In this document: piece by piece, positions 280 through 46,034 of the stretch | Numbering within the stretch: the stretch's first letter is position 1 | Layout of the letters: every line of letters starts with the position of its first letter | Origin: Psammoneis japonica | Lineage: Eukaryota | Length of the DNA stretch: 64,000 nucleotides | NCBI GenBank assembly: GCA_008632985.1 | Contig: QPGO01000003.1 | Coordinates: forward strand, 372,001 to 436,000 | Direction of reading: 5' to 3' | Program-made: the position numbers and the translations under genes | Notes under the pieces: generated by a model | The model's input: the letters and a program-made list of their open reading frames with translations, nothing else | Told to the model about the DNA's origin: nothing | The model's database searches: none

Positions 280-883
280 CTAAAATGGACCAAACCATTC
301 GTCCGCTCCCCCCATGTAATTGACAAGGTTTGTGTATCCCGACATGGCGGCGAGACCCGCAGCATGCTGACTCCGAATACCGGCTTTGCAAGTAAATACC
401 AGCGTCTCGTCGAGACTTGGCTTTTCAAATCCAAAGGCTTCCTCAAAGTCATCTTCATCCATGGCAAATGCATTGGTTTGAGCCAAGAGCGGAAGCGGCG
501 CCGTGTGAACGACCGAGGAGAGCTTTCCCGTTGCTATAACCTCGTCGTCACCACGAACGTCCATTACAACATAACCACTCTCCTCGCGACCACCGTGTTC
601 CTGAAAAAGACAATACATGGACAGGAGGTATGCGTTTTTGTGAGAATCAGGGATTATCAACAAGAACAGACCAACGCACGTTGTTGTCGAAACCGACACG
701 CACCAAATCTTCTAGAATTTCCTCCATTTGCTGCTTTCCAATTTGCGCAATTTCAGGAGGCTCGTCTCCGAAAGCGCTCATGAATCGTTGTGTAGTGGGA
801 CGACGAGATGCTTGAAACAGAGCTCGACCGGCGGGAGCAAATGCGTGAGCACTGGTGGCAAGCATGACCCTTGTGACAATCAT
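280..883 (-). CDS. Rhodanese-domain protein with bipartite plastid-targeting presequence; exons 883-704 and 600-280 (166 aa)
   Basis: MIVTRVMLATSAHA-FAP matches the diatom ASAFAP motif. The phase-0 intron 703-601 (GTGCGT...TTTCAG) joins it to VMDVR...LVFTCKAGIRS...NYMGGADEW, the rhodanese active-site loop and C-terminal motif. Confidence 0.88.
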
Positions 884-1102
884 TTTCTGAAGAATTTCAC
901 TAAAAGAAGGAACTTGACAGAACGATGTCTCGTCTGAAGCGGACCAAGAGAGATACAATCCCAGAAAGGAGAACCACAAGAACAGAGTGTGAGGGCAACT
1001 TTGTGCGGCGCCGTTAGTCACCTATGATAAGTGATAAGCTGATTCATTAGCTTTTTTTTCGAAAAACCGATGTTGGGAAAAAAAAACGATGATGCTGCAT
1101 GC

Positions 1103-1145
1103 TGACGTCATAGCTGGGGAGTGTCTTGAGTTGACGTCATGACGT
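1103..1145. promoter_or_regulatory. Cluster of TGACGT(CA) bZIP/CRE-like sites upstream of the rhodanese gene
   Basis: TGACGTCA at 1103-1110 and 1132-1139, and TGACGT at 1140-1145, 220-260 bp upstream of the ATG at 883. Confidence 0.35.
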
Positions 1146-4100
1146 TTGTCGTTCGAGCGATCGACCCTTTCTTCTTACTTCCTCCAAATTTCGCCAGATT
1201 CTTGCAGTTCAGACAACAGCTTCTGCAACAAAAAGCTTTTCCAGTCAACAACCTTGAGCCTCTGCTCATCCTGTGTCACAGGTCACAGGTGATGCAGCCA
1301 GCATCGGCATGACAAATTGTGCGCCGAGCGGCGTTGCCGGGCACACACACTTGCCAGCAGCTGGGGCATTGCGAGACATCTGTTGTGCATGAGTGTCTGG
1401 CAAAGAAACTGCTCTTTATTGTTTGTGACTGTCAATCCAGTTTAGAAGTGCTGCAAGCTGTGAAAAATTAAAAATTTGGAAAAGCTGAGACCCAACCAAA
1501 CTGGCATGTTTCACCAGCACCCGCAATCTGTCACGCGACAGAGCTTGATTCTTTGTGCAGTTTGGTGCATCAACCTCCTTCAAATTTTTTCACTTCAAAA
1601 ATGGAAAGGTGAGTGCACATAAAAAACAAAAGCTTTGCATGCACCCACCCTTCAATTTGTTGGGGGGGGAATCGATTTTGAGGGAGTTCGTTGTGCCACA
1701 TGCAAAAATGGTCAGCGATGGGAGTCGAGCCTGTGCGCATCACCTGGAGCTGGAACAGGCCCATTGCACACCATGCATGCCTCTTCTTCCATGCCCAGGT
1801 GACATGCTGATGCACCTGTGTTTTTTTCCGTCGGCGGGTCCTCACCCATGCTGGCATCAAATGAAAAAACAAACTTGGCAACTTCGGCCTCAGGCAAACT
1901 CTCATCTCTGGCAAATGAGAGCTGCAGTTCATCTCACATCCCCCACTTTGAAACACACACATGACAGCTGGGAAAGATCTGACAAGCTGACTCCCAATTT
2001 TTGGAGCACACAGCAGGGTTGCCCGCTCTTCTTTTCCTGATCGCTTTTCTGTGTTTTTCCCATTTGCGGGCAGTGGAGTCTTTGCTTGTCAACATTGCCA
2101 GTGCCTGTCCCTCCAACCATTTCCATCCATGGCAACTTTGAGAACTGGCTGAAATCCTTGCTGAAATGGGAATGTTTGCACTGTTCTGCAACCCCTTGCC
2201 CTCCACGTTTCAGTCTTTGAAATCGCAGACTCCTTGGTGAATGTTCACGCTGCTGTGGGCAGCGATGCTTTGGCACTGCATTTTCATGGCACCTTTGGAT
2301 GGACATCAACTGTCAATGGGGCTCCCTCAGTTGATTGCGTTGGACCGGCATTTGGTTTTTGACCATCTTCCTGCCAAGCAGAAGCCTGTGGCTTTCTCAT
2401 TCAAGTGATGGAATTTTGCAAAGTGCATCCTGTCCCAAGGCAGGTGTGGATGCCTGCTGCAACAATTCCTCTCTGGTCCACAATGTGAAGAACTTCCACT
2501 CTCTGTCACCACATCCACTGGATGAGGAGGATGAATTTGACAAACAAAATGACTGTCATCATCAGCATCATGTTGCAAATGCATTGGCTCCCGACAACTG
2601 GGATGTGTTGCATGAGATTTTCATGTTGCTGCAAAGTTTGGAAGCTCACTCCATTGCGGAACAAGCTGACACCTTGGTCAGCATGCACTGGGTCAAAGGT
2701 CACCAAGACAACAACATTCTGCACAAGTCTCTGCCTCTTCCAGCAAAACTGAGTGTCTGTGCTGACAAGCTGGCAAGTGCATTCCAAGGTCAGTGCATTG
2801 GTGACACCTTGCTTGCACCTCACATGCCTCATTGTTCTGCAATGTTGACAGTCCAAGATTTGTTGGTGACTTCTAAATTCAAGTTGGTTCTGCACTGCAA
2901 AGCCCCCAGACTGCCCTGACAACATGTGTGAAGGAAAAGTGTGGATGGTCTGATGCAGTGCACTCTTCAATTGACTGGCACAGGTCCACTCCAAACAAAT
3001 GTCCTGCAACATTGGACGCAAGGTGTGAGCACAGTGAAAGTTGCACAAGATTTGCTTCCAACAAATGAGGTTGTTCGCCAATGAAATCCCACGTGCCCTG
3101 ACTGCTGCATGCATTGCCACCATCCACTCAAAGACAGAGACCACATTTTGCAGTGCAACCATGATGAGTCTTGGTGACGCACCTTTCTCCCAGGCTTGTG
3201 AAAGAAGTGCGATGATGTGCACACATCCCCGTCACCATGGGATCTGTTGTTGCACACTCTGGATGGCTGGTTTCATGATGAAATGCTTTGCTCTGAGAAT
3301 CTCCATCACAGTGTTGTGGTGGTGTGTTTCAATCTCATGATGAAATTTGCTGGAGACACATTTTCAGTGGGCGTTTCTCCTCATTGTGGAGTGACACCCA
3401 AAAATTGCACTTGTCATCTGCCGGTTTGTGTCGCTCCTTGCATGGCCAAGACAGGCAATTAGATTGGGCCGCTGCTGGAACAAGTTTTGTGTGGTCTCAA
3501 TGGTGGGAACTTTGGGACAGTCACAACAATGCAGTGCATGGGTGCGACTCTCTGAAATGAGAAAATCTTCTGAGCATGCAGAGATGCTGAGGTGGAAGTT
3601 GAGCTGTCTGCTCCAAGGCAGATGATCACCTGGCTTGCAATCAATCTCAGTTGTTTGATTTGATTGATGAGCATCTTGCTCATTTGACCCACAGATTGCA
3701 AAATTGGTTGGCTGTGGCCAGGCCAATGTTCAAGTCAAGCATCTGTGAAGCCCAGTGTCTGGCAGTTTGAGGCACGCACACCATTGCAAGTTGCTTCGGC
3801 ATGGCATCACCTGAGAGTGATGCCGATTCAGGCCAATTGTCACATGCTCTTGCTGCACCTGTTGCACTGGGAGTGTGGGTTGGCTTGTTGCCGGAGTCAC
3901 AGGGTGGAAGCACAGCAGCACTTGAAGAAATGAGATTTTGGGTTTTTGTTTTGTGTTTTCCCCATTTGGAGCAAAAGACTCAGCCACTGCTGCCCCAAGA
4001 GCTCTGCAGTGGGTGCCTCCACAAAATGCATTTGCCCCCAAATGGAGGTTGCAGCTCACACACACTTGTTTGACAGCCTGCCACGGCACACCTTTCCCAC

Positions 4101-5745
4101 AAGAGAGGGGTGCACGGTTGAAACAGCAGCAGCATGGTGTGTGCTGTGACCATCAACCAACACAAGCAATTTGGCCTTTTTTTCGATCTGTTGTTTCCAT
4201 CATTTCAGTGCATGCTCAGCAACCAACAAAATGGCTTGAGTCCAATGCTTCTGAAAAAAACACGCCAACACTTTGCGCCAAGCTCTCTTTCTCTGCCCCT
4301 CACCTCTTTCTTTCTCACAGGGCCAGGCAGCACACACAACAAACAATGCAGTTCCAGAAAAGGTGAACTCATGGAAAGGACAGCTTGTCATTCCTGCAAG
4401 CACAACAATGCAAAAGCCCTTTGAACCCAAGGACCCTCACGCTGTTGCATTTGCAACACACGAAGGGATGCGAGGGACAAAAAACACAGTGGCACGCTGC
4501 ACCTTGCGGCATTGTGCAGTTGACACTGTGGGTGTGACACAGCATTTTCTGCAATGTTGTGCAGCAATCCAAGTTTTGTCTCCGTGCTTGAATGTAAATT
4601 GTGTTGGGTCATTCTTTGATGCGGCTGGATGTCCATGATTTTGTCATTGGTGGTCATTCAAGACAAACTGAAAAAATGAGCCCCCATTGTGACCACCCAC
4701 AGAGAACACAAATCTTGAAATTGCACACACTGTAAACTCCAAAACTGCAATTGTAACCTGCAAGTTACGAGTGACGAGCACACAACCATGGTGGCCGATC
4801 AAACAGAACAACACCCAATGATCGCTGCCAGGCGTGCACAGATGCAGCCTGGAAGATTGGCCCATCAAACAGTGAATTGTGCGCAGCTGCAATCCAGAGC
4901 GAGACTTCATTGAATGTTGAATTCTGTGGTTGAAGTTCCTCATCTGAGCTTCCTGTTTCAGTGTGGTGGCTCTGCTTCTTCTTGTCGTTGTTGAAAATGT
5001 TCAGTCTACGACAACCGTGGGGGTGTGCGCCCAAGAGAAATTTGATGGCCCTGGCTCAAAAGACTGCAATGATGAAACTCTCAATCTGTTGTCAAGCCTG
5101 GAATTAAAACGTTCGGCGACCCCCATCTTGCATCAAAGCCACAAGGTTTTGGTGCTTTCCTCATGCCTGCCATTTCATGAATGTCTCTCAAATCTGCAGC
5201 CAGATGGGGGGTTGCAGCAGAGAACACCATGAAAGAACATGTTGAAAATGGTGGAGTCTTGTTGGCAGTCTCAGTGCAAACGGGTGCGCTCGCCTTTCTC
5301 AACTTGATTTTCCCTCTGGCTGGAACCTTGGTGATGCTGGCCACTGCTTTCCTGGCAATGGTGCACAAACAAACTCAGGGAACACAATGGGAACTGTGTT
5401 CCAAGGCGGGCTGGTGTTTCTTGGTTGCCCCTCTGCTGCAAAATTTTTCACATGCGGCAGCGTGTGGAATGCACACCAATGTGCGGGACGAAAAGCGCAG
5501 CATTGGCGGCGATGTTTCCCTTCGGATCCGGTTGTGTCGTTCTTTTTGCTTGGAACTTCTACGACAGTGGTCATGCCATCAATCTCCCAGGAGTTGGTGC
5601 TCGCGTTGACTGCCGCAGCAGAAATGATGTGTGGGCAACAGAAGTTCTTCCCCGCGCACTTAAATTTGCAGAACGACATTTTGTGGTGGCTCAGAGAGCA
5701 CGATCACGAACGGATCCACCTTCATGTTCTTCGCTGTCTGCAGCA
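1115..5745. other. TpA-depleted degenerate repeat block 1
   Basis: Very few TA dinucleotides, TG/CA excess and Tyr-free ORFs in all six frames. TA returns abruptly at about 5748. Confidence 0.8.
2090..3760 (+). mobile_element. Decayed non-LTR (LINE-like) retrotransposon 3' part: RNase H and C-terminal region
   Basis: Frameshifted RNase H motifs VGSD...GTFGW, GPAFG..SSCQAEACG (=SSYRAEAYG), CCNNSSLV (=YCDN), WDVLHEI, WVKGHQD and LSVCADKLA, then WELWDSHNNAVHG typical of diatom non-LTR elements. Confidence 0.75.
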
Positions 5746-6244
5746 GATTAGAGAGTCAGTAAGTCTAGAGCTCATCAATGACATGGATACGTCGCCAAAA
5801 GATGAACAGCTAGATAGAGTAGAGAGTGCAGTAATTACAAAATTATCATCTCCATTCCAACAACGCGCGCGAAAGTGCCAATTTTTTGCGCGGGCGCAAA
5901 ACCCAATTCCTTATTCTAATGACTGAAGAATGAAATAAACAACTTTACTGTTAGTATATATTCATCTACGTACATTACCCATTTTTCCGTTTTTGGTGTT
6001 GAAACGCACCAAGCAAAAGATCCACGTGGTGAAGAATCTTTTTCGTGGAAGTTCTCGCCAAATAATACTGCGTACGTAGAAACTGTGTAGAGAAAGTACC
6101 GATCCTGCCACGGAGCGACATCGGTCCCGTCGGAACAGAAAAACCTCACTTGTTGCTGTTGATGAAACATAGCTTTGTTGTTGCTGTACTTCACGTCTTG
6201 TTCTGGCAACAGCTTATAGCGTATAGCAGTCACTACCCAACAGG

Positions 6245-8765
6245 ATGAGTGGTATCGTGTTCTTACCGCTACAGATCCTTTTGATCTCTATTGATCTCTT
6301 GGTACGCAAAGCATACGTCTTTTTGAGATTTCAGAGAAAATCGACAGAGCAATGACCATAATATCTTACACAGTTTTCTTTGTTTACCTCTTGTTTTTCG
6401 TTGTATTCGTTCAGATCTCCATTATCACCTTCAAATGGGTCGGTGTTATCAAGAAGACGTTCTCTGCAGAGCCTGTTCGATCGGTTCCAGTCAAGGACGA
6501 TCCTTCGCACCGTGTTCAAGCTCAATTTCGGGAAAAGGTCGCTACCACGCCCAGTACGGGCGCTACCACCATGCACGAGGTGGCAAGCATTGCCTTTGAC
6601 ATGCATCCCACCAAAATTTGCATGAGGCAACGTGAATTTCTCGGATGGAAGACTCCAAAAAAGGTCAAGGAATTCTCGTCGACCGTCAAGGAGTGGACCT
6701 TTTCTCAAGTGCAAGACATTTCTACCAGGTTTGGAGCCGCCTTGGTTGCCAATGGCTGTGTCGCTTCGGATCCTACCACCAACTTGAACAAGATTACCAA
6801 GCCATGTCGCATGGCCATTTTTGAAAACACGTGTCCCGAGTGGATGATGTCGTGTATCGGTGCCTTTTCGCAGAGCATCGGTGTCGTGACGGTCTATGCG
6901 ACTCTTGGAATTGATTCCGTGATTGAAGCGGTCGATGACAATATCGTTCCCGTGATTGTCTGTAACAAGAGCAATGTCAAGTATTTGGTGGAACATGCCA
7001 AAAAGATGCCTTCCCTGAAAGCCATTGTTTACACGAACGATTTGGTGGGTAAGGATGATGAGTTTGAAATCCCTACGGCCCTTCCTCGTGGACTCAAGGT
7101 TTTCAGTTTTGACGAGTTTGTCGAGTCTGGTGATACTGCAAAGTATCCCGTAACGCCTCCTACGCCGGATACCACTGCTGTCATTATGTACACGAGTGGA
7201 AGTACCGGAAAACCAAAGGTAAGTGAAGACTTGGTATGGAGTGACTGCTCTATGGAGACTTGGACTTGGTGAATAGAGAGACTGCTAGGACTTGGACTTG
7301 GTGAATAGAGAGACTGCTAGATTATGTGATCCCATGTATTGAACTCAAAGATTCTGCCCCTCCCTTTTCTTTTTCAGGGCGTTGTCATTAAGCATTCTTG
7401 TGTCACTGGTGGAGCAGCAGCCGCTGAATATGCTATTGGTTTGAAAACAGAGCATCGCTATCTCGGGTATTTGCCTTTGGCTCATATCATGGAATTAATG
7501 GTTGAGTTTGTTTGTCTCGGAAACGGTGTTTCCATCAATTATGCCGATCCCAAGAGTTTGACGCAAACCGGATCCTACCCCATTGGTGCCCTGGAACAGT
7601 ATGCTCCTACTCACATGGTGGCCGTACCCAAGATTTGGGATACCATCAAGAAGGGTCTCCTGGCCAAGGTTGCCTTGTCCAGTCCTGTTGCTCAGGTGTT
7701 GGTTCACACGGCGATTCAGTGGCGTACCTTTGCGGTACGAATTGGATTGGATACGCCCCTGTTCAATGCTCTTGTTTTCAAAAAGTTCAAAAAGGCTGTT
7801 GGCGGACATTTAAAGTGGGCTCTGTCGGGCGGTGGTCCATTGAATGGTGAAGTCCAACAATTCATTCGCGTGGCCTTTGATATTCCGTTGATTCAAGGAT
7901 ATGTACGTGTTGCGCAATGGTGTGCTTGCCATTTATGACACTGGATGTCTTCTCAATGCTGCTTTTTCTTTTATTTCTGTTGCAGGGTCTTACGGAAACT
8001 TGCGCTGGATTGAGTATTGCTGCGTTTGAAGACGAGAGACCGGCCGTTGCCGGATTCCCCATTGCCTCGGTTCAAGTCAAGGTTGAATCGACTCCTGATG
8101 TCTGTGACCGCGGAGGATTGCCATACTTGTCTACGGACAGAAAGGATGTTGACGGAAACCCAGTTTGGGGACGTGGCGAAATTATGGTCAAGGGTACCAA
8201 TGTAACGTCCGGATACTACATGATGCCAGACAAGACCAAGGAAGTTTTCTTAGACGATGGTTGGTTCGCAACGGGAGATATTGGCCAGTTCCTCAGTGAT
8301 GGAAGTCTTCGGATTGTCGATCGTAAGAAGAACCTTGTCAAGCTCAAGTCTGGAGAATACGTTGCTCTCGAAAAGATGGAAATGGTTTACGGAAATTCTT
8401 CGTTTGTGGATGCCATTGCTGGTGGTATCTGTTGCTATGCCGATGGCGAGATGGATCGTCCCGTCGCACTCTTTCAACTTTCCGACCCGTCACGATGAAG
8501 TGGGCAAGGAGAACGGAGTTTCTGGGGATTTGAGACTGTCAAGAAGAGCAAGGAATTGTACAATGCCGTCATGGACTCCTTCACGGGTGAACACGCAAAG
8601 AGTGACTTGAGTCATATTGAAAAGCTCAAGGCTGCAGCCTTATTGACCGACCCCTGGACTCCCGAGAATGGATGCTTGACTGCCGCTAACAAGTTGCAAC
8701 GCCGTGTTGTGCAAGACTCCTTTCCCAAGGAATTCGAAGATGTGAAGAAGAAGGGAATTTTCTAA
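6245..8765 (+). CDS. LACS: Long-chain acyl-CoA synthetase; exons 6245-6301, 6415-7218, 7378-7902, 7986-8765 (three 1-nt deletions near 8485-8532)
   Basis: AMP-binding motif IMYTSGSTGKPKG, YLPLAHIMEL, QGY/GLTETCAG, GWFATGDIG, IVDRKKNLVKLKSGEYVALE and LTAANKLQR. Introns 6302-6414, 7219-7377 and 7903-7985 are GT-AG and keep the frame. Confidence 0.93.
7257..7320 (+). repeat. Perfect 32-bp tandem duplication in LACS intron 2
   Basis: gacttggacttggtgaatagagagactgctag at 7257-7288 and 7289-7320. Confidence 0.95.
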
Positions 8766-9843
8766 TTTTGCGTGATCCAACGGATGATGGGGAATGCGTT
8801 TAGTATTTGGAGTGGAGTAGACAACGACATAAGAATAAGTGGCGTGTAGAAGTCCAAATGACCTACTTTTCTCTCGTGGGTGCCATTGATCACACATTTA
8901 GGCCGGATGGGAAGGTCATGGTGATAACAAGAGTTTCAATTGAAACCAGATATGAAATACGTACAGCGTCAACACTAAATTGCTTTGACGCATGCGCTGG
9001 TCACGGTCTGGCTTGAAACACAAGCCTTGTATTAATCCTTTTGTCGGACGATTTCCCGATTGACACCGTGGGTTTTTGCGAGACCAAGAAACCGCCAGTC
9101 AAATGTTACCGCAATCAACATTAGTCTATAATGTCACCCGCATTCGTGTGATGGTCTCGTCGAATGCTGGCTACCTCTTTTGTTGTTGACTACGACACTG
9201 GCATAAAGCTGTTCTTTTATTCAGACTATTGCTTCCCAGCAAATTAATGTTGTTCCAGCCTAGGCAAGTAATCGACGATTGCCACAATATTTTTTCCTGA
9301 AGCAAATTCCTACCACAGTCCCGCTTTGGCAGTGCAATTGCGCTTGCGCGCCGAAACACACAGCCAATTTGCACATGGAATTAAAAGTTCCAAAATCAGT
9401 CCGTCTAAGACTCTTGAGATTGTCTCCTTTTCCAATTTCCAATGGCCCGCCACTCTTCGTACCATGGACAACCATCTCAAGGAAAGCATTTATGCACGCA
9501 AAGCACTGCAATGTGTATTGGCAGAACTTGTGATAAATCTCATGCAGTAGTTGGTACCCATACGCGCGAATCTTTACTCGCGTGTGTAGGTTCTTTCAGG
9601 AAAGTAACGATGCTTTTGTGTCGTTCGGCAAGCAGAAAAATTAGTATAAAGAGACAATGCTTGTAGAGATATGAATTCACTAATAACAGACCAAGCATGC
9701 ATTTTTTTTCGTTTTTCAAAGGGAGTTGGTCTCTGATATAGGCCTAAAGGGTTTGGTAAGCAACGATCAAATCATCATTCTTGCAGCTTTCAAGTCGCCG
9801 GTTGTGCCGATGGAGTGGTTGAGGGAGCTTCCGACGGCGCTGT

Positions 9844-11835
9844 TTAGAGACAGTCCGGCACCTGACCACTATCAGAAGGGCTTCTGGGAGGCTCGACACA
9901 AGCAGGAGCGGACGTTGGTCCATAGTTAGTAGAACTGCAATTGAAATTGCCACCACCGGCGCCGGTGCAACAAATGTCGTCACCCACTGAGTCGCAAGTG
10001 TAAATGCCACCAACCGGGGTATCTGCAACAACGGGACAAAACGGCAGATTCTTAACACTCTCTCCAAAGGTGCAATAAGTTGATGGGTGCGGTGGACTGT
10101 TAATCTCACTAAGGCAGCTTGTGCCGCATGTGGAACTGCAAGTCGAAGTTTGGAGCGCTCCAAGTGCGACCTTGACACATCCGCTGGTTGAAGGGCAGCA
10201 TTTACCTCGCTGGTCGTTCCGGGCACTGACAACCGCGTATACATCATCACACAGAGTCTTTTTCTTGTCGGTACAAAGTCCGACACTCTGACAGACACCG
10301 TCGATACAATCCTCACCGGAATCACAATCAGTCTCGTCGACACAATCGGGGCAAGGGTTAGCACAATTTCCACTACCATCGCACGCATCCGAGCAGTCGC
10401 ACTCAAAGATGCAACTTTCGCCTTGGTTATTCTTTTTGGACAAGCAAAAGTCTGAATCGCATATACATTCGCAGGTAACAGCGTCGCATGTTGCTCCCGC
10501 ACCGTCACTCGGGCGTCCACCGCAGTCACTGTCTTGACTGCACTCTTCGAGCAAGCCGTCGGCATCAAATTTTGTCACACATCGTCCAGTAGGTGAGCCC
10601 GATGGGACGTCACTAGGTGACTGCGACGGAGTTAGGCTGGGCATACTAGAAGGTGTGGTTGATGGGACGTCACTTGGCATGGGTACCGTGGGGCTCTGAC
10701 TTGGTGAATCGGACGGAACTGCTGACGGAGCATCACTTGACGATCTCGACGGACTGTTACTAGGTGACTGCGACGGAGCTTGGGTGGGCATATTAGAAGG
10801 GGCACTCGACGGGAAGCTACTCGGCGCGGCTGATGGAACGTCACTTGGCATGGGTACTGTGGGACTTTGACTCGGTGAATCGGAAGGAACTCCAGATGGA
10901 ACATCACTTGGCGAGCTCGACGGAATGCTGGTAGGTAACTGCGACGGAGCTTGGCTGGGTACACTAGAAGGAGCACTCGACGGGACGCTACTCGGCGCGG
11001 CTGATGGAACGTCACTTGGCATGGGTACTGTGGGACTTTGACTCGGTGAATCGGAAGGAACTCCGGACGGAACATCACTTGGCGAGCTCGACGGTATGCT
11101 GCTAGGTGACTGCGACGGAGCTTGGGTGGGCATACTAGAAGGAGCACTCGACGGAACGCTACTCGGTGTGCTTGATGGAGCGTCACTTGGCATGAGGGCT
11201 GTGGGACTTTGACTTGGTGAGTCAGAGGGTACGCCAGACGGAACATTACTCGGCATGTCACTCGGTGTGTTGCTAGGAGCCGCAGATGGTATGCCGCTCG
11301 GGATATCAGTGGGCGAGGAACTTGGTTGAATCGAAGGCACGTCACTTGGTGAGCTGCTTGGCACACCAGAGGGAACCTTACTAGGCGTACTCGAGGGAAC
11401 ATTGGATGGAACAATCGACGGCATGTCACTTAGTAAGTTTGATGGAGAATCAGTATCAGCATCAACAACAGCGTCACTGGGCGTACTCGAAGGAACATGG
11501 GATGGAACACCCGACGGCAAATCACTTAGTATGTTTGATGGAGGATCAGTATCAGGGTCAGGGATGAGGAGCATCGTCGGCGTAGCAGTAAACATAGTCG
11601 GTCTTCGAGTGGGACGAGGGCGCGGTCTCCAGGTTAGCCTAGTAGGACGCCGTATGAATCCCTTCCCCTTTCCTTTGGCCCTCTTGGGAGGCCTCCTTTT
11701 CCTTGGACGCCTCTTCCTGACCTTCTTTCCCTTGCCTCTCCTTCCCACTTTGCCTCGCCTCATATAGTTGAACCGAGAGCCTGCGAGAGAACAAGCTACC
11801 GAGGCAAGGAGAACTAGCAGAGTTAAATACCGCAT
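9844..11835 (-). CDS. Secreted mucin-like protein: signal peptide, K/R-rich segment, PSxxPS repeats, Cys-rich C-terminus (663 aa)
   Basis: MRYLTLLVLLASVACSLA signal peptide; RRGKGKKVRKRRPRK; long PSDVPS/PSSAPS tract; about 240-aa Cys-rich tail; single open frame. Confidence 0.85.
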   Translation of the reverse strand: MRYLTLLVLLASVACSLAGSRFNYMRRGKVGRRGKGKKVRKRRPRKRRPPKRAKGKGKGFIRRPTRLTWRPRPRPTRRPTMFTATPTMLLIPDPDTDPPSNILSDLPSGVPSHVPSSTPSDAVVDADTDSPSNLLSDMPSIVPSNVPSSTPSKVPSGVPSSSPSDVPSIQPSSSPTDIPSGIPSAAPSNTPSDMPSNVPSGVPSDSPSQSPTALMPSDAPSSTPSSVPSSAPSSMPTQAPSQSPSSIPSSSPSDVPSGVPSDSPSQSPTVPMPSDVPSAAPSSVPSSAPSSVPSQAPSQLPTSIPSSSPSDVPSGVPSDSPSQSPTVPMPSDVPSAAPSSFPSSAPSNMPTQAPSQSPSNSPSRSSSDAPSAVPSDSPSQSPTVPMPSDVPSTTPSSMPSLTPSQSPSDVPSGSPTGRCVTKFDADGLLEECSQDSDCGGRPSDGAGATCDAVTCECICDSDFCLSKKNNQGESCIFECDCSDACDGSGNCANPCPDCVDETDCDSGEDCIDGVCQSVGLCTDKKKTLCDDVYAVVSARNDQRGKCCPSTSGCVKVALGALQTSTCSSTCGTSCLSEINSPPHPSTYCTFGESVKNLPFCPVVADTPVGGIYTCDSVGDDICCTGAGGGNFNCSSTNYGPTSAPACVEPPRSPSDSGQVPDCL
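10640..11260 (-). repeat. Coding tandem repeat with a 171-bp (57-aa) period, about 3.5-4 units
   Basis: The cat of cacttggcatg recurs at 10678, 10849, 11020 and 11191. Confidence 0.85.
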
Positions 11836-13098
11836 TGTTCCCAACGTCGGCCCTTTCAGTAGGAGTAGAGAAAGGGAGTCTACCTTTCGAACCGCAGAAC
11901 AAACTCTGACATCACTGAGCCATGAATCCACGAACCGCAAGAACGCTTGTCAGCTTTTCAGTGCTCGACTTTTTTCTTTTTCGCTCAATCGTGGCCAAAT
12001 TTTCAAAAAAGGGCTGTTATTTAATTGACGTTTATTGCCTTGTCGTTAAATAACTAGATTTTTGGTTTCTCCGTGAATACCGTTTATGACTGCATTGAAT
12101 TTAGCTTTAAGTAATGCTATTGCCTCTTAGACAAAAATTTTGCGGCATAAATCTATAATAATTTTTCGAGTCTAAACGTTGAATCGTTAATGAACTTGGG
12201 AATGCACGCGTATTTCTTTAAGTAGTTCTACATTTATGTGGAAACAGTTAAATCACTGAATGTCCGAACACCTAGGACGGACATCGGTAGATTTCTACAT
12301 TACGTCATTCAAGTTTAAGATTTTATCGGAGGGAGATTCCTCCACTGAGAATCGAGAAATACAATACGTAAAAAGGTTAATCATCGGTCGCTCGACGATG
12401 ATGCTCACGATTTCTTCAAAATCCATTACTTTTAATGCTACGGCCTGAATCTACCTTCTCAATTCATCTTTCAAGCTCCCTGAAACCTCAGCATAGAATC
12501 CCATCTTGTCATGTGTCAGAAAATCGTTCGTCACCAAGCATATGCACCTCGTCTTCGTGGACAAGCGGGTTCGCTGTTGTTCGATTACAGCGGAACTTTG
12601 GGCAGAGTATTGCAACTCATACTTCAGTTTCTCTATGACGAGGGAGTCCAACTAATAAAAAGAGAGATAAGGAAACTTAATGGAAGCATGGGTGAAGTTT
12701 CAGACGTGACAAAGGCCAACTGCATTGTCGCAGCCGGCGTGAATCTGTACAAGACCAAACACACGTGTGTTGTTGATGGCAAACGGTCTGAAAGAGCATT
12801 CTTCCTTTTTGACACTGCAATTTTTACTCACTTGCTTCGTCCAGCAATGACAGGAAATGACAATGCTGAAAGGCGGCTGCAGAGTGGGGCGGTTAAGAAG
12901 ACTGTGCAAAGGACGGAAGTAAGGAAAGCTGAAATGCTCCCTGAACGTATGGAGGTAGTGAGCAAAAAACATCCCATGTTGCATGTTGGGAGCGACGTTG
13001 CCCGAAAGGAAAATCGACATGCTTCGACTCATGATGTTACCGGTTCCAGGGTGACAAGGTCTACAATCAAAACAACTCAGTGTCCTCGTCTCATAAAA

Positions 13099-17879: not shown

Positions 17880-18035
17880 CTCTACTTACGGTCCTCTCTT
17901 TCTCTAGTAGCTCTAGCTAGTAGCTAGAGTAGTAGTAGCAGCTAGCTCTAGCTAGAGTAGCTACTACTACTACCGGTACTGCTAGTAGCTAGTAGAGAGA
18001 GTAGAAGTAGAGAGAGCTACTAGTAGACCTAGAGT
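17880..18035. repeat. Low-complexity TAG/CTA/AG island
   Basis: ctctagtagctctagctagtagctagagtagtagtagcagctag...agagagctactagtagacctagag. Confidence 0.85.
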
Positions 18036-18334
18036 ATTTGCCTCGAACTCAGAATCATCATCATCATCGCCCTCAACTATGCAAAGAGCTGATAGAAGCG
18101 ACAACGGATGGCACTCCGTCATGTATGGTGTAAATAAGTCAAAAAATGCTAATGAGGCACACTTGATTATGAAGTTTTGTATGTATTGCTGCTCTACTAC
18201 AGACACACTCTCCACTCACGGTGGAGAGTGCTCTACTAGTAGACATGCAGTGCTAGCTATATCCCAGATATGCATCGGAACAACTTCTTTTGTTCTCTAG
18301 CTAGCACGTGTTATGCGTGTTGTGAAACAAAAGA

Positions 18335-21829: not shown

Positions 21830-24800
21830 CTTCATTGCTCACGGAAAATTGCATGCCCACTGCTGGCTGACACTGCCGTTAAGATGCAACCGCACGCCAA
21901 GCCAAAACTCCATCACTTTTGACCGCCGGCTCCACCTCATTTCATCCATTTCCTCTCTAGACCTGACTGGATGCGGAAAGTTCCAGGATCTAATTTTCCC
22001 ACATCAACAAAGAACATCAAAAGACTCAAGTCATGGAGAGCATTGGCATGGAAAGGCAGCTGCAAGCCCTCGCAGTCAAAGACATCTGTGCTGAAAGAAT
22101 GACAGGCAAAATGAAAATGTGAATGAAATCACACACACAACAACAATCTACTGAGGCCACATGTCACAGTGTGCTCACTGTGACAGCTTCCAGAGGTGGC
22201 TCTGAGACACCCTGCCTGGTTTTAAGACCCCAAGTGCTGCCAGAGTGGTTCGTGGCATCCGAGCATCCAAGAGGAGGCGAGGAGCCCATCAGGGCAGGCC
22301 TCCACTTCTCCATTTTACCTGGTGCATGGCCTGGGCTTGTTGGTGCACTGCCAAAATCTCCCTGCATGATGTGGACAATGTTGTGTCTTGGACAATGAAG
22401 AGAATCGATTGCAGAGCAGGAAGAAAGGCTCGTCACAGACCAGACACCTGCGCGCATGAACGAGAAGAAAAAAAAGGCTCGTGAGGTGTGCGTCTTTCAT
22501 CAAAACAACTCTAAAACCCAATCAATTACAATGCACTCACATGATTGTCTTCTTTGGAGTGTTTGAAGTCTGTCTGACAAATGCCACCATCATGGGTGTC
22601 CCCGAGGCTCCATCGCATTGTTTTGTTTCCATGGCATGTGCTTTTGACACTCCCAAAAAATGACACGCCATTGTCACACACCTGCCAAGACCCCAAGAAG
22701 GACATCAAGAGCATCACAAGTCTGTCTTAACATGCAAAATGGGTGAGCCAAAGGATGCTGAGTGGGGTGAAGCATGAAGCTCCCAAATGGATGCGCTCTG
22801 GCGGTGCCAATGACTTGAAAAACATGCCAAAAAACCAGACACCACAATCGACCGCAGGAGACGATCCATCCACTTTTCAAGCTGCAACAAAATGCAACAA
22901 TGATCTTCAGTGACTGGGAAAATCACATGAAATGAGAAAACACAGAAAGAACTTGCCTCGGCAACGTTTTCGACCATTCAGATGTCACCCGCACAGTGCA
23001 GCAATCAAGGCACGAGTCGATGCACGCAACCGTTTGAACCGTGTGTCAAAACCAAAGCCCCCTGGAAGCCAAACCAGTGTGTCAACCTCTTCACAACAGC
23101 AATGGAAAGAGATCACACATGAAAAATGTGTCTGTCCCACCATGTTTGCCATGACGAGATGCATCAAAGTGCAGTGTGCATGGCTGTTTCTCAGTCTGTG
23201 GTGCGGCATGCCAAATCGAGAGCATTTGAGCAGAATGAAGGAAATGAAGAGGATTTGCTCTTTTGTGTCATCACACAACTTGCACCAGATTGGACCGTTC
23301 ATTTCTGCTTGTCGCCACAGAAATGGAGCTGTGTCGTCACAGGATTCTGCACAAGTTCCAGTGCATTTCCTGCACAGTTTATGAAGAGCTGCCTCCGCAG
23401 CTGGACGATTGCCTCTCTGCTGGTGGCAGAGGTCACGGCCTTGCGGCTTCAACAAAGTGCTCACAACCACTGAGATGGTTTGTGTGGCCTGCACACAAAC
23501 CCATGAGATCATTTTTTGCCTCCCCATTCTCCTCTGGCTCTCAGATTGCCATCATCTGGCAAAAAACCCATTCTTGCAGAAAGAGTTGCTGAGACAAAAG
23601 ACGCTTCCCCCACCACATCTTGTTCCCCCAACTTTTGTTTGTCAATGCTGTCCAATGACATTGAAGTTTGATGGCGTTGACACATCGCTGGAGTTTGAAC
23701 TAGTTTTTTAAGCCTTGTTGTTGCATGATTGAATTTGAAGCCTTTTCCGTTGAACCTCCAGGCATCTTTCCTTTTGCTGTTTGCTGTGTGACCATCATGC
23801 CAGCACCAGAATGACCGATGGTCTCTCAAAACACAAACAAGCCACAGCTTGCTTGCTCTGATGAGCATGACAGTCATTGCACACTTGAGTGCTCTTCTCA
23901 AAGCAAGATGCTTTTGGACCATGTCTCGTGCCCCAAACAAAAGCACTCAAAACCCACAAGATTTCAATTTTTGCCTCCCCCTCTCAACCTTGGCAGATTG
24001 CCACACCTGCCCAAAAACCCACTCCTGCAGAAAGAGCACAGAGATGAGAAATGAGAAACAGGATTTTTCCAGCACCGCCTCTTTGCACAGGATGCAAGAT
24101 GATGCAGTGACTGTGTGTGAGGTGGCACCTGGCCTCCTGTTCAAGCTCTGGGTGATGCGCACAGGCTTGATTCCCATCACTGACCCATTTTTGCATTTGG
24201 CACAATGAACTCATCCTTTAAAGTCAGTTTTTTCCCCACAAATCAAAGGGCAAGTGTGCACAAAACTCATGTTTTTTGTGTGCACTCATCTTTCAATTTT
24301 TAAAAATGATCAAATTTGAAAGAGTTTGATGTGCCAAACTGCACACACAAAATTGCCCTCTCATGTGACAGATTGCTCATCACCTGGGGCTAGAACAGGC
24401 ACCACCTGGTCAGCTTGTGCACTGTGCAAAGCAGGTTTTTGCTTGCCTGGCTGGCAGCAGCATTGCAAAAAAAATGTTGTCCAGAGCACATGTGCAAGAG
24501 TGGGAATGGTGAAAGCGTGGCACATGCATTGGGCAGCATTTTCAAGCTGATGGCAATGATGCTCGGAGTTTTGGAGCAAGGAAACACAGTTTTGGGTGTT
24601 GCAGGAGGAGGTGCAGCCATGGCCAATGGGCATCACTTTGCCTTCTGCATGCTGGCGGGCAACCTGGAAAGGAAGCGGAGGCGTGATGTGGCTGGGCAAT
24701 GGGCCATCCTTTCAGCAGGTGCTGCACAAGAACGTGTGAGCCGTGGGCCCTCCAAGGTTTTAGAGTTCCTTTGTGACAAGAAGGATTTTGGTGTGCCGCC

Positions 24801-26450
24801 AATGTGCAGAGCCAAAGTTGGGTTGTGGCTGCAGCTGAGAGGCACATCTGTGATGGGGCCAAGACTCAGAGCAGTGCTTGGGATTTTGTCTTTGACACCA
24901 ATGCAGAGAGGATTTTCAGTGCCCATGCCAACAGAAATGGGAGCCAGCAGCATTTTGCCAATGCATGGACTCACTCCCTGGTGGCCGCAGCTTGGCAGGA
25001 TTTTGCCATTGCAAAGTGGAGATCAATGCAGAGGTGACAGTGTGGGGGGGGCAAATGCCGTTTGTGGATCAAGGTGAGAGAGAGCAGCATGAGCAAGCTG
25101 CAGAGCTGAGCTGTTGAGAGTGTGTGTCAACTGGCAGGTTGGCTGGTCCAGGGGTGCAGCGCAGATGGGAAACATGGCCAAAGGCAGTGCCATTGTTGGT
25201 GCTGGAGGCTTTCTGTTCACAGGACATCTGAGGTGCATCCTTTTTGGTGTCAACAGAGCTTTTGTTGCCTTGTAAAGCAGCCAGCATGTTGCTGTGTCAT
25301 GTGTGGACCATCTTTGCCCTGCACAAATCAGTTGCCAGCCAAGCAGCAGAGCTGGAGTTGGGTGCAATGGCATCTTGGATGTCAGCCAGTGGGGGGCAGT
25401 TGACAAGCCATGGGGGGGACCTGGAAGCAGATTGCCTCAAAATCAGTCAGCAGCTGGAAAGAGCTCAGCTGACTAACTTGGTCCAGCAGCAGTGTTGAGT
25501 GTGAGGGAGTGCAAATCCTGGAGTTTCCAGCAAGTGTGCCAGCTGAACTTGGTTTGAAAGTCCATTGAGAGCTGAGGGCAACAGTGAGTGCTTCAACAGC
25601 ACTGACTTTCAGAGAACTGTCAGCAAGCCATGGAGGAGTCACTGAGGATGGAGAGCAGTCTCTCTTGTGGCTGGTGCTGGCCAAAGAGTCTGGGAACCCC
25701 CAAAGTGGCATTGATGGCGGCCCTGGGCCACACTGCATCTCTCTCAAACAGCCAACTTTTTGAGACAGACAGTCTTTCACTGGCACTGGCTCTCATCAAA
25801 TTCTGTGCCAGGGCAGAATGTTTGATCTCGGATGTGAAGCAGTCAACAACACAGACAGCTGAGATGTGCCTTGCTGCCTTGTGCTGCTCCCACACCTTGT
25901 TGTCCACACACACACTTTGAAGTGTTGGATGGCTGGGATGAGGACCCCAGCGGCACCATCTCTGTGGCACGTTGAGGAGCATGGATTTGGAAGAAGGTTG
26001 TTCCAGCTGCTGCTTTGTCTTGAGTTTACATTTTGGTGACAGGACATTGACATTTGCAGGGCCTGAGTTGATGACACATGAGTTGGAGGGGATTGCTCCA
26101 GGGGGTGCACTGGTGGATCCCACACTGCAGCTGAGCAGGTGTTGGCCAGATCAACTGATGTCTCAGCTCCCCCTGTGCAAAAAAAAGCTCTCAATCCAAC
26201 CCATGGCTGGTGTCAGTGGCAGATCCATCAGCAGTGGCTCTTCCCCTGGCTCGATGGGGGATGTTGCTCTGAGCTTGGGCATGGCTTCTGGGTGCAAGTC
26301 AACCCTGTGCTAAAACCCGTCCAAAAGGTCCAGCTTTCTCATCATGCAGATGCCACATCCAAAAGCTGGGTCACCCGAAGTGTGTCACAGAGCACTTGTG
26401 TGGCCTCTGGAGGAGCCAGCTTGTGCATCTCGTCGCATTGAGCCCATTAG
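21830..26450. other. TpA-depleted degenerate repeat block 2 (element family not recognised)
   Basis: Same composition as the other blocks. Contains repeat copy B (23635-23830) and an internal repeat pair near 23510-23585 and 23967-24035. Confidence 0.75.
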
Positions 26451-27699: not shown

Positions 27700-28449
27700 G
27701 ATATGATGCGTCAAGCGAAATGATTGAGTAAAACGGCAGTGAACTTTCAATCTGAATCTGATTTCTGATTTATCACAGCGACGTAACCTTGGACGCTCGC
27801 TCCACAATCCACAATCGATCCAAATAAATCCAGGCGACACGCGAGATCGTCGGATCTTCCGCCAATCACCTAAACAATAAGTCGTGTTTCAGTCGTGCAA
27901 CCGTCGAGCGACCGCGCACGCAGACAGGGAAGGAACGCTCGTGATGATGTTGACGTTCGATTGCATACATAGAGGTCTTTGAAGGATATCCTGCAAAGAT
28001 TTTCGAAGCAACAGGGACGCTTATTTCTTACTGATCATTGCTGATAAAGTGGTGATCATATAGGCCATTTCATTTTATTCCACATTCAGCATATGACCAA
28101 CATGCTCATACGGCGATTTTTAACGATTGCCGTTACCGATTTATGTTGGCGAAAATAAACCGTGATCGCACGTTTTCCGCAGTCCCACCAACAGCGAAGT
28201 GCTAAACGATGCGATGTCAAATGGTTCAGTTTCCCAGTACGCATCCACACTGGACGTGCACCACAATCTTTCTCACAATTCGTACAAAGCGTTTTCTGTG
28301 AACGAAATCGCAACGGCAAAGTGGTAAGAGCCATGTCGTCCTTTGATTCCTCTCTGTCTCGCTCAACGTTGCTGCGTCAAGCTTGTGATATCCATCCGCA
28401 ACTAACGTAGGCGTTTGCATCTTTCTTTTTCACTCCAGTCGCTGAAACA

Positions 28450-32484: not shown

Positions 32485-32690
32485 CGTACTCTCTCTCTCT
32501 CTCTCTATTCTACTTGTACTCGAGTAGCTAGTAGCCCTACCGGTATACTCTCTCTAATAGAGAGTAGTAGAGAGAGTAGCTACTCTATTACTACTCTAGA
32601 GAGAGCTCCACTCTACTAGTAGTAGACCTACAGTAGCTAAGACTACTCCTATTAGAAGTGCTCTCTCTAGACTAGCTATTAGAGCGGAGC
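32485..32690. repeat. Low-complexity (CT)n/TAG/CTA island just 3' of the S8 protease gene
   Basis: ctctctctct...gagtagctagtagccctaccggtatactctctctaatagagagtagtagagagagtagctac...ctactagtagtagacctac. Confidence 0.85.
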
Positions 32691-32713
32691 AAACTGTAAG
32701 TTGTTTCTCAATT

Positions 32714-36964: not shown

Positions 36965-38075
36965 GAAGATTCTTTTGCTGGAACTTGTCAGCACGCACAG
37001 CACCGGCAGAGCACGCCGTAGAGACCATGAAGAAGAAGTCTCATCGTAAAGCAGACGCAGCGATGACATGTGTGTGTGTGTGTGTCTTCCAGTCGAATTC
37101 ACAGAGAGTCTTTTTTGGCAAGTCATTCGATCATCACAAAGCATCGCTCCCCATCATCGCCTTCTTCTGGCAAAACAGGTGTGAACACAACTGGTGTGGT
37201 TGCTCCTCCTTTGCAAGCAGAAACTCTGGACATGCTGAGCAGGTGGATGATCAAAATTGATGGGGGGCACTTGATTGTGGCAAGGCAGCTTGCTGGCCTT
37301 GGCTGCCCAAAAAAAGTTTCGAGAACACTTGTGCTGGTGTGGAGACAAAAACACATCCTCGCCCGCCAGAGGAGATTGAGGCAAGACCATTGTGGCCACT
37401 TTGCCGGCTGTTTTCCAAAAAGCACAAGGCTCTTTCCACTCACAAACTTCATGGTGCAAGTTTGATCTTTTACACATGAAAAGCACACCAGCAAACAAGT
37501 GGCACAAAAGACTGGTGGGAAAAAATCTTTTGCAGTGGGTTTGTGGCTCGCCATTTTTTGCTGCAAAAAACTGGAAAAGTTGTTGCCAGCTGCTCTTCTT
37601 AAATTCAGCATTGGCCACCAAATGGCACTGCCAGCATCTGCACCCCCTGCTGCCACATTGTCTTGCAAGAAGTTTGGCAAAATGACAAAGCGGGCAACGG
37701 CAACCTCTTGCATTGCCAGCACATTTCTTGCTGTGCTGGTGCTCTCTGCCATTTCTTGTGCCAAGTTCATGATGGCAAGTGCATGGAAACAGCAAAAAAT
37801 GGAAACAGAAACCAGCCTCCCCAAGTTGCAAGAGATTTTGGCTGCAGCAAGGGCCCGCTGGCTGGTGGCACAGCTCACCACTGGTTGACAGGGCATGTCT
37901 GATGGCAACCTTGCATCCAAATGGGAGCAAACAAAAGCAGGTGACAAACATTGGCAATCTGCACTTTGCCACAATGTCCAAACCTGCCATTCTTGCTGCA
38001 GTGTGCATGTGCCCCCTGATGTTGTGGGCTTCGAATCAACAACAGATGTGTGAAAAGATTCGCTGGTGGACACTT
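36965..38075. other. TpA-depleted degenerate block 3 (family not recognised)
   Basis: Almost no TA over about 1.1 kb, TG/CA-rich, with overlapping nearly Tyr-free ORFs, in the divergent intergenic region. Confidence 0.7.
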
Positions 38076-38261
38076 TGTAACAGAGTGTTAAAATTATCGT
38101 CATCAAAAATGACTTAGGTTTCACACTCTTTGAGGGCTTATTTCATCAGGGCTTATTTTTCAATCGTTTTTCAACGCAGAACAGTGACCCGAAGAGTCAC
38201 ATGACAACGTCGTTCTTCACGACCTCGCAACTAGCTTCACATTTACACGCAGCACACAGCC

Positions 38262-42287: not shown

Positions 42288-42705
42288 TGCACTCCCTCTC
42301 ATTGTGTCTTGTGAGTTTAATCAACCAATCAGATCAATTTTGGCTGACTCCGGTTGCTGTTGTTCATGAAGAGAAATTGCCCTTCACACTCACCAACCCA
42401 TGACCAAAGGACGTAAGGCTTCAAGTGCCTCGGCCGTCAAGGGCTTGGTGAGACAGTCTGCCAGTTGATCCTTTGCATCAATGACATGCATTGAGATCTC
42501 CTTCCTTGTGACACAGTCACGGAAGTGATGCAACTTGACATTTGAGTGCTTGGTGCGTGGTCTGCACTTGTGTGCACGTGCCATCTCCAGAGCACCGCTG
42601 TTGTCCTCAAACACTTGACAATGAATCTTGGGCTGCAACATCTTGACAGGGAATCCATGCCACTTGAGTTCTTTCAGCATTTCCATCAAGGGTGTGGCTT
42701 CTTGG
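42288..42705 (-). mobile_element. Ty1/copia pol 3' end (RNase H C-terminus) with polypurine tract and probable LTR start
   Basis: EATPLMEMLKEL...VFEDNSGALEMA..KCRPRTKH.NVKLHHFRDCV...DQLADCLTKPL...MGW*. GAGAGGGAG at 42300-42292 is followed by TGCA. Confidence 0.85.
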
Positions 42706-42724
42706 AAAGCTGAATTGTTTGGAG

Positions 42725-43612: not shown

Positions 43613-43654
43613 AAAAAAAAAAAAAGACAGATTGAGTCAGCCAAGATCTGTGAA

Positions 43655-45960: not shown

Positions 45961-46034
45961 GCGCTGCTCCCAATGCAGCCAGTGAATGCTTCTGTTTCCC
46001 CACTCCTCCCATCAGCTCCAAACAAAATTTCAGG

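Follow-up and report, generated by a model that had tools for sequence, protein, structure and literature searches.

We analyzed a 64,000-nt stretch of genomic DNA from Psammoneis japonica (assembly GCA_008632985.1, contig QPGO01000003.1), which is called the window here and whose positions are used for all coordinates. Between the 5' ends of two divergent genes, one with a rhodanese domain and one encoding an AMP-binding enzyme, lies a segment at 1115-5745 (block 1) that is nearly free of TA dinucleotides and contains the remnant of a long interspersed nuclear element (LINE)-like retrotransposon (Table 1). An earlier note, made from the letters alone, had read this segment as TpA loss on a LINE remnant, with sharp borders next to intact genes. 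Here we describe the composition of block 1, what it consists of, the direction in which it has changed and the limits of the affected DNA, and weigh the processes that may have produced it.

TA depletion and its sequence context

Sliding windows across block 1 gave observed/expected ratios (o/e) of 0-0.12 for TA, 0.07-0.5 for CG and 1.5-2.2 for TG and CA at a GC content of ~49%. In total, block 1 contains 15 TA (o/e 0.05; positions 1176, 1417, 1443, 1469, 1620, 2874, 3460, 4595, 4733, 4754, 4766, 5007, 5105, 5560 and 5661), 103 CG (0.37), 530 TG (1.78) and 490 CA (1.75), with a GC fraction of 0.489, and both flanks are normal in TA (o/e 0.54 at 1-1114 and 0.57 at 5746-9000) and in CG (0.98 and 0.92). 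A two-state hidden Markov model (HMM) was used to segment the window, and in the tract that it delimited here (tract 1) we counted 14 TA versus ~176 expected from the o/e of the window's normal part (Poisson P 1.2e-56), with o/e values of 1.79 for TG, 1.76 for CA and 0.35 for CG. The TpA-loss signature that the earlier note had proposed for block 1 is thus borne out by counting.

The HMM detected four such TA-poor tracts in the window, covering 25,899 of its 64,000 bases (40%), and each of them has TA o/e of 0.03-0.06, CG of 0.24-0.35 and TG/CA of 1.7-1.9. Measured against the 38 kb of normal DNA in the window (TA o/e 0.591, CG 0.972, TG 1.13, CA 1.16), block 1 retains ~8% of the expected TA and ~36% of the expected CG. 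Its deficits of 162 TA and 169 CG add up to 331, compared with a TG+CA surplus of 358; for the four tracts pooled, the TA+CG deficit is 1985 and the TG+CA surplus 2133. The composition of block 1 is what the conversion of both TA and CG into TG/CA would yield. The CG part of it has the signature of CpG decay of the 5-methylcytosine (5mC) type, with CG o/e of 0.35 in the tract versus 0.97 outside and a surplus of TpG/CpA; TGA, Gln or His at conserved Arg positions of the LINE-like remnant agrees with it. Since the two conversions offset each other in GC content, block 1 is invisible on a GC plot.

Survival of TA depends on the flanking bases. We compared the 73 TA left in the four tracts, as symmetrised tetranucleotides, with the NTAN spectrum of normal DNA. 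Survival was highest in TTAA (0.36), followed by CTAA/TTAG (0.26), GTAA/TTAC (0.13), CTAG (0.09), CTAC/GTAG (0.06), ATAA/TTAT (0.05) and GTAC (0.015), and none was left of the ~290 TA expected in ATAC/GTAT, ATAG/CTAT and ATAT. The survivor spectrum differs strongly from the normal one (chi-square 110, P 2e-19), and the 14 TA of tract 1 alone follow the same pattern (two in ATAA/TTAT, none in the other ATA/TAT classes). A baseline taken from intact relatives of the LINE-like element agrees: ATA/TAT contexts and TTAA make up 56% and 4% of their TA, versus 8% and 22% among the survivors. In terms of the base before the T, TA was lost fastest after A, then after G, C and T, which is equivalent to the order T, C, G, A for the base after the A; because TpA is self-complementary, effects of the 5' and 3' neighbours are inseparable, and counts of trinucleotide products could not tell them apart.

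The LINE-like remnant and the direction of change

A phmmer search with the open reading frame (ORF) at 2335-2919 against 1.84 billion representative proteins returned 43 proteins (E 1e-6 to 9e-4), and in tblastn all 43 aligned inside 2113-3818 and nowhere else in the window. The full-length relatives, which are encoded on metagenome contigs (P0001, 1934 aa; P0044 and P0049, 1953 aa; P0050, 1825 aa), have an N-terminal Exo_endo_phos domain (27.7 bits in P0001, with a cut-off of 24.5, and 24.3 bits in P0044), a weak RVT_1 match (16.8-17.0 bits, below the cut-off of 29.6) and a weak zf-RVT match near the C-terminus; the JGI label of P0044 and P0049 is 'exonuclease III'. The window holds sequence matching the last ~530 residues (1371/1421 to 1919/1946) of such 1934-1953-aa proteins, which probably combine apurinic/apyrimidinic endonuclease (APE), reverse transcriptase (RT) and RNase H, and this C-terminal part aligns to 2113/2195-3767/3806 in three frames.

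The RNase H assignment is supported by structure prediction. The AlphaFold2 model that a 50-row alignment gave for P0042, a short relative (predicted local distance difference test score, pLDDT, 82.1; the single-sequence fold reached only 36.9 and was not used), matched RNase H1 and retroviral RT-RNase H chains in Foldseek (probability 1.00, E from 2.8e-7, target TM up to 0.81). The Pfam RNase H model itself matched neither the ORFs of block 1, the relatives nor the remnant read with X at its stops, only one weak match to RNase H (E 0.26) came from a profile search against PDB sequences, a word-index protein search with the RNase H ORF confirmed none of 1060 candidates, and Pfam searches with 13 ORFs of block 1 gave only a sub-threshold DUF3429 match. 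Downstream of RNase H, the zinc-knuckle-like Cys/His stretch (CPDC...H...C) corresponds to a weak zf-RVT match (E 0.28) in the X-masked remnant. We take the remnant to be the 3' part of a probable APE-RT-RNase H, LINE-like element that is truncated at its 5' end. A repeat search revealed candidate target-site duplications (TSDs) that bracket the LINE homology and are identical at 18 of 20 positions, a similarity that could also be a chance match; no long flanking direct repeat was found around the remnant by this search.

The LINE homology accounts for 37-41% of block 1, so that the earlier description of the whole block as a LINE remnant holds for this part and not for the remainder, which is partly high-copy repeat. 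At 1570-1763, overlapping the 237-bp repeat, the summed depth of contigs from a public sequencing run (X1) is ~1067, compared with ~61-66 elsewhere, and other copies of the segment at 3704-4091 differ from it mostly by transitions. These two segments are high-copy repeats, and other parts of block 1 are at single-copy depth, although heavy mutation would hide old copies. The 237-bp repeat had a tRNA-like look, which was unsupported: ARAGORN and Rfam found no RNA gene in the block or in the window.

Table 1. Coordinates of the features in and around block 1 and of the other TA-poor tracts, with the distances from tract borders to the nearest ORFs
Feature	Position	Strand	Evidence or remark
Left neighbour gene, rhodanese domain	283-883	-	Pfam PF00581, E 1.8e-8; first ATG 883
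TA-poor, TG/CA-rich tract (block 1; tract 1)	1177-5748	.	HMM, change points, Poisson
CpG-poor core, CG o/e ~0.28-0.35	1339-5454	.	CG HMM; CG change points 1373, 5455
237-bp repeat	1523-1759	+	blastn; inverted copy at 24136-24376 in tract 2, 77% identity
Candidate TSD, left copy	2047-2066	+	Repeat search
LINE-like remnant, frameshifted, 10 in-frame TGA	2113-3806	+	phmmer, tblastn, Pfam on relatives, codon counts
RNase H domain remnant, incl. WVKGHQD...ADKLA region	2195-2900	+	Alignments; AlphaFold2 model of relative P0042
SSCQAEACG motif	2366-2392	+	Translation
CCNN motif	2455-2466	+	Translation
Zinc-knuckle-like Cys/His stretch, downstream of RNase H	3094-3156	+	Translation; weak zf-RVT
High-copy segment, LINE-like 3' end and beyond	3704-4091	+	X1 depth 1171-2909 vs ~61-66
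Candidate TSD, right copy	3949-3968	+	Repeat search
Right margin, TA lost, CpG kept	5455-5748	.	TA vs CG change points
Right neighbour gene, AMP-binding enzyme, first exon-like ORF	6352-7272	+	Pfam PF00501, E 1.1e-18
Tract 2, 17 TA, o/e 0.06	21992-26447	.	HMM
Tract 3, 2 TA	37048-38077	.	HMM
Tract 4, 40 TA in 15.8 kb	41557-57397	.	HMM
Ty1/copia-like polyprotein remnant (RVT_2 relatives), without Tyr codons	51938-53930	+	tblastn
Tract 1, left border			294 bp from rhodanese ATG 883
Tract 1, right border			603 bp from AMP-binding ATG 6352
Tract 2, left border			954 bp from ORF ATG 21038
Tract 2, right border			277 bp from ORF stop 26725
Tract 3, left border			258 bp from ORF ATG 36790
Tract 3, right border			184 bp from ORF ATG 38262
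Tract 4, left border			237-307 bp from ORF ATG 41250
Tract 4, right border			155 bp from ORF stop 57553

Comparison with the relatives gives the direction of change. The three frames of the remnant contain, in 525 codons, no Tyr, 28 Cys, 40 His and 10 TGA, whereas in the full-length relatives Tyr makes up 2.9-3.5%, Cys 1.8-1.9% and His 3.5-4.0%. At the seven columns that are mostly Tyr (at least two relatives aligned), the window has Cys three times and His, Phe, Gly and Pro once each; at the 15 mostly-Arg columns, it has TGA four times, Gln three times, His and Arg twice each, and Ala, Asp, Phe and Val once each. At the SSCQAEACG motif, P0001, P0040 and P0042 have (S/T)SYRAE(G/A)YG and P0023 has FRAEAYG, so that the two Tyr-to-Cys changes read earlier from the letters, together with Arg to Gln, stand; the Asp-to-Asn change (CpG>CpA) in CCNN stands as well. 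The Tyr of the supposed ancestral YCDN is not established, as Tyr precedes CDN in only two relatives (P0022 and P0027) and is replaced by F, W, V, A or S otherwise.

According to the earlier note, intact copies of the element that are equally free of TA would speak against its reading. The metagenome DNA of two open-frame relatives (L001 and L002) has TA o/e of 0.61 and 0.74, CG of ~1.0 and TG/CA of 1.05-1.15, and the LINE-like family is therefore not TA-free by nature. This comparison supports the view that the TpA loss is secondary rather than native to the element.

Both strands were affected. Tract 1 has 524 TG and 489 CA (221 and 183 in its LINE part), the remnant contains both Tyr>Cys and Tyr>His changes, and no strand-wise patches were found in the order of TG and CA by a runs test (z -0.34; controls -1.5 to +1.6). 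Moreover, the sequence of block 1 outside the LINE homology is equally depleted (TA o/e 0.00-0.11). Hits on both strands and mutated flanks of the LINE-like part thus point to mutation at the DNA level after insertion, and not to editing of a sense transcript. We also checked the letters against the independently assembled contigs of X1, the one DNA run listed as containing this stretch (no RNA run was listed for it). These contigs contain 0.93 of sampled 31-mers at a word depth of ~61-66 and span 600-3892 as five pieces, each with 0-2 differences. Only two fixed differences were observed over this range, 1828 C>T and 2339 G>A; neither is at TpA, and the latter is a CpG>CpA change inside tract 1.

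Borders, neighbouring genes and other TA-poor tracts

Borders were placed as maximum-likelihood change points with 2-lnL support. The right TA border of tract 1 is sharp (change point 5749, support 5650-5760, with TA dense again from 5749), as the first reading had it; the left one is looser (change point 1177, support 1049-1494) and is not sharp at the place where that reading had put it, since the rhodanese gene to its left is itself TA-poor (o/e 0.3-0.5) and blurs it. Across the eight borders of the four tracts, the support of the TA change point is 47-445 bp wide. All eight borders lie outside the nearest ORF, 155-954 bp from its end, and the genes retain TA, in agreement with the proposal that the process stops a few hundred bp from genes.

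The loss of CpG does not always end where that of TpA does. At the right end of tract 1, the support of the CG change point (5270-5489) does not overlap that of the TA change point, and the margin between the two contains 2 TA versus 9.5 expected (P 0.004) but 21 CG versus 20.1 expected. CG and TA change points agree within their support at six of the eight borders, and at the other two the CG change point lies 294 and 379 bp further inside, leaving margins at 5455-5748 and 57019-57397 that have lost TA and kept CpG. Judging by these two offsets, the TpA process seems to do more than track CpG methylation.

Two TGACGTCA palindromes were observed just outside the left border of tract 1, ~220-260 bp upstream of the rhodanese ATG (1103-1110 and 1132-1145, the second then followed by TGACGT). 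They may be candidate promoter elements, perhaps of the basic leucine zipper (bZIP)/cAMP response element (CRE) type. Among the other genes of the window is one of the enoyl-CoA hydratase family, whose best named relative belongs to the diatom Amphora coffeaeformis (50% identity), with oomycetes next; on this basis the host was taken to be a stramenopile and probably a diatom.

Besides block 1, the other three tracts were examined for mobile elements. Pfam recognised no transposable element (TE) domain in 112 ORFs of tracts 2-4, found only the rhodanese gene in the 117 ORFs that include the left flank, and gave no match with six X-masked frames of tract 2. The ORF at 52341-53300 in tract 4 has four relatives (E 4.9e-17 to 4.7e-4), all with RVT_2, and its ESM Atlas neighbours agree with scores up to 0.80, which we regard as a lead only. 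In the Ty1/copia-like remnant around it, 111 aligned pairs with a Tyr in the homolog show His (32), Cys (23), Phe (13) and others (43, including 6 gaps), and never Tyr. The signature is therefore present on more than one TE class, in line with the earlier suggestion: a LINE-like remnant in block 1 and a Ty1/copia-like one in tract 4 are both without Tyr codons. Tract 4 also includes 4.7 kb without any TA (48426-53143), where TG (o/e 2.1-2.85) exceeds CA (1.5-1.8). This segment of marked strand asymmetry overlaps the plus-strand copia-like remnant, in which, nevertheless, Tyr->His (CAY) outnumbers Tyr->Cys (TGY) and so does not account for the asymmetry. In addition, tandem repeats in tract 4 (43089-43598, 173 bp x 2.9, 78% match; 45715-45963, 122 bp x 2, 92%) indicate that satellite-like DNA is also found in the mutated domain.

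Several other features were observed in the window. Two intergenic islands (17880-18060 and 32500-32720) have the reverse composition, with TA o/e of 1.3-1.4 and TG/CA of 0.64-0.85. Both are CTAG/TAGTAG/CTACTA low-complexity, partly self-complementary sequences (the arms at 17898-18001 match their own reverse complement at 79%), and sequence of this type puts stop codons in many frames on both strands. Two long ORFs, at 9844-11949 on the minus strand and 28411-30525 on the plus strand, match PT-repeat and contain tandem repeats, one of 171 bp (10660-11254) and the other of 210 bp (29124-29543), and adjoin Reprolysin-like, subtilase-PAN and GH18 ORFs. In appearance they are unremarkable repetitive genes of the secreted or cell-surface type.

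Origin of the TA-poor tracts and comparison with known systems

The explanation that we favour, and consider quite likely, is that block 1 underwent both-strand TpA>TpG/CpA mutation after its arrival, confined to repeat tracts and alongside CpG loss. A 5'-truncated LINE-like 3' end, together with other, partly high-copy, repeat DNA, would have been inserted between the two divergent genes, and the whole 4.6-kb stretch would then have been mutated on both strands from TpA to TpG or CpA (A:T>G:C). The accompanying CpG->TpG/CpA loss would be most likely due to ordinary deamination of 5mC in methylated TEs. The TpA process has run nearly to completion in block 1 and, within the window, is limited to this block and the three other repeat tracts. 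The sequence itself demonstrates the composition, the borders, the direction of change, the involvement of both strands, the dependence on context and the occurrence on two TE classes. The agent of the process may be an enzyme that works on DNA and is directed to silenced or repeated sequence, the likeliest candidate being an ADAT/TadA-like adenine deaminase that converts adenine to hypoxanthine in DNA, as proposed for the alga Bigelowiella natans, and the process may serve as a genome defence.

Alternatively, retrotransposon transcripts could have been edited from A to I by an ADAR-like enzyme and the changes fixed by reverse transcription and integration. The recognisable elements in the tracts are indeed retrotransposons, and ADAR editing prefers a 5' U, i.e., A>G after T, according to the Discussion of Mettrop et al. 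(bioRxiv 10.64898/2026.01.13.699255). Such editing would leave only A>G on the sense strand (TA>TG), whereas the LINE part has TA>CA just as often and shows Tyr>His besides Tyr>Cys. Furthermore, the ~60% of the tract beyond the LINE homology, of which the CpG-normal right margin is a part, carries the mutations to the same extent, and the tract borders match neither the ends of the element (2113-3806) nor the candidate TSDs (2047/3968). RNA editing is largely refuted by this strand symmetry and is in our view very unlikely. We hold it to be extremely unlikely that the pattern is an artefact, in which modified bases (N6-methyladenine at TpA and 5mC at CpG) were misread during long-read basecalling or assembly. 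Miscalls that conflict between strands could produce domains with sharp borders, affect TA and CG together and leave a random choice of TG or CA at each site, and the sequencing platform is not on record; however, the X1 contigs carry the same letters over 600-3892, their clean and deep 31-mers imply accurate reads, and the remnant is also truncated and frameshifted. The copies of the 237-bp repeat and the copies seen at read level also differ from each other at many sites, like real old decay.

A native TA-poor composition (such as that of a TA-avoiding donor), GC-biased gene conversion or relaxed selection deserves next to no credence, even though TA is under-represented throughout the window, including its normal DNA. 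The relatives' DNA has ordinary TA and encodes ~3% Tyr compared with none here; conserved Arg codons are now in-frame TGA, so the frame of the remnant is dead rather than adapted; gene conversion would neither be restricted to TpA nor remove CpG; and ordinary intergenic margins beside the tracts retain TA. A different chemistry on both DNA strands is unlikely but has more in its favour. Here the T of TpA would be modified enzymatically, for example oxidised to 5-hydroxymethyluracil by a TET/JBP-type enzyme, and its mispairing with G would give T>C, read as TA>CA on one strand and as TA>TG on the other. Because TpA is self-complementary, T>C and A>G have the same end state and no result here separates them, and CpG loss, too, affects the pyrimidine of a pyrimidine-purine (YpR) step. 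The sole experimental precedent, in the text available, discusses adenine deamination (10.64898/2026.01.13.699255), and action on thymine would change only the chemical step and not the finding of TpA loss. As for what limits the process, a homology trigger, similar to that of repeat-induced point mutation (RIP), or an element-limited trigger would fit the sequence as well as the chromatin domain proposed in the earlier note; the limit may be set by a chromatin boundary, the end of the insert or the reach of a homology-triggered process.

Several points weigh against both-strand TpA mutation after insertion as the explanation. It is deduced entirely from the end state in one assembly, and no mutation was observed occurring. 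Polarity was read from relatives of ~25-45% identity, which stem from metagenomes rather than from this genome; the ancestral states rest on few columns (seven Tyr and 15 Arg), and two of the former and four of the latter are explained by neither TpA nor CpG loss. The other 59-63% of block 1 is of no recognised origin. In the repeat pair 1523-1759/24136-24376, only 19 of 56 differences are YpR-to-YpR, so that ordinary decay is mixed in, and at 77% identity this pair was too diverged to serve as a source of a clean spectrum. The context hierarchy presupposes an ancestral NTAN spectrum similar to that of normal DNA or of the LINE relatives. Finally, X1, of unrecorded platform, is probably the source sample of the assembly and thus not fully independent, and its contig pieces are listed without coverage of 4092-6400.

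Among known systems, fungal RIP (as in Neurospora) changes C:G to T:A, converting CpA to TpA, and thereby creates TpA and AT-rich isochores. Block 1 resembles it in that dense, dinucleotide-specific transitions are confined to repeated or foreign DNA and inactivate TE frames, and in the sharp compositional domains beside genes. The direction is opposite: here TpA is destroyed, TpG/CpA rises to ~1.8 and GC stays at ~49%. RIP itself was therefore rejected as the identity of this process, as it would raise TpA and the reverse is seen. The 5mC-driven CpG decay of methylated transposons is also similar, with CG o/e of 0.28-0.35 and a matching TG/CA surplus in the TE tracts. Plain CpG decay, however, explains about half of the surplus in block 1 (169 of 358) and cannot remove TpA, and at two borders the TA-poor tract extends ~300-380 bp past the CG-poor one. 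Animal deaminases (ADAR, A-to-I; APOBEC, C-to-U) work prior to integration, on RNA or single-stranded cDNA, and produce a strand bias that is restricted to the element, as the preprint text summarises (10.64898/2026.01.13.699255); they share with block 1 the clustered transitions on retroelements and, for A-editing, the 5' T/U preference, and differ from it in that both strands and the flanks of the element are affected here.

The closest parallel is B. natans, in which A:T>G:C hypermutation restricted to TpA has been measured in mutation-accumulation lines (Mettrop et al., bioRxiv 10.64898/2026.01.13.699255). According to the main text of this preprint, the targets are integrated giant-virus and virophage DNA, which still has 3.3% TpA, and adenine deamination of the ADAT/TadA kind is the proposed mechanism (10.64898/2026.01.13.699255). 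Common to both cases, as far as that text describes its own, are TpA as the sole target of the process, TpG and CpA as products, and a local action that spares neighbouring host DNA; B. natans likewise has TpA-poor, CpA+TpG-rich clusters, and its TpA-poor coding sequences are enriched for RT and DDE domains. In B. natans, a rhizarian, new mutations were measured and the inserts are mainly viral, whereas in the stramenopile analyzed here only the end state is seen and retrotransposon/repeat tracts are near saturation. CpG is co-depleted here, which the main text on B. natans does not report, and a term search of that main text found no account of flanking-base context or of border-to-gene distance. 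Our literature searches found no description of such TpA loss in diatoms, and the B. natans preprint was the sole matching text.

We thus file block 1 under the same signature as the B. natans hypermutation, in another eukaryotic supergroup. Judged against the preprint text, it is set apart by saturation on LINE-like and copia-like elements, coupling with CpG loss, the context hierarchy and the gene-near borders; context-dependent TA survival and the TA tract overrunning the CG-poor tract at two borders are newly seen here. Other examples of targeted hypermutation of mobile DNA are fungal RIP (C>T) and the action of animal deaminases, and a signature at saturation on two kinds of retrotransposon, LINE-like and copia-like, in a stramenopile suggests that the TpA process is widespread. 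It is conceivable, although we hold this only tentatively and with more doubt than confidence, that a stramenopile (diatom-like) alga possesses a defence by DNA editing, targeted to domains, which would remove TpA on both strands from all silenced transposon tracts, with a footprint in which T-A preceded by A or G is favoured and TTAA is refractory, and with a reach partly independent of CpG methylation (the ~300-380 bp overrun); taken with what is seen in the chlorarachniophyte, such a defence would indicate an old and widespread 'reverse-RIP' adenine-editing immunity of eukaryotic genomes.

Such a process would alter the reading of TE age and repeat content in algal genomes, as mutated copies become unrecognisable, and would also alter the use of dinucleotide statistics and where natural DNA adenine editors are sought. 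The context hierarchy and the offsets between TA and CG borders provide testable footprints for the enzyme and its targeting signal, with borders beside working genes placed to within ~50-450 bp.

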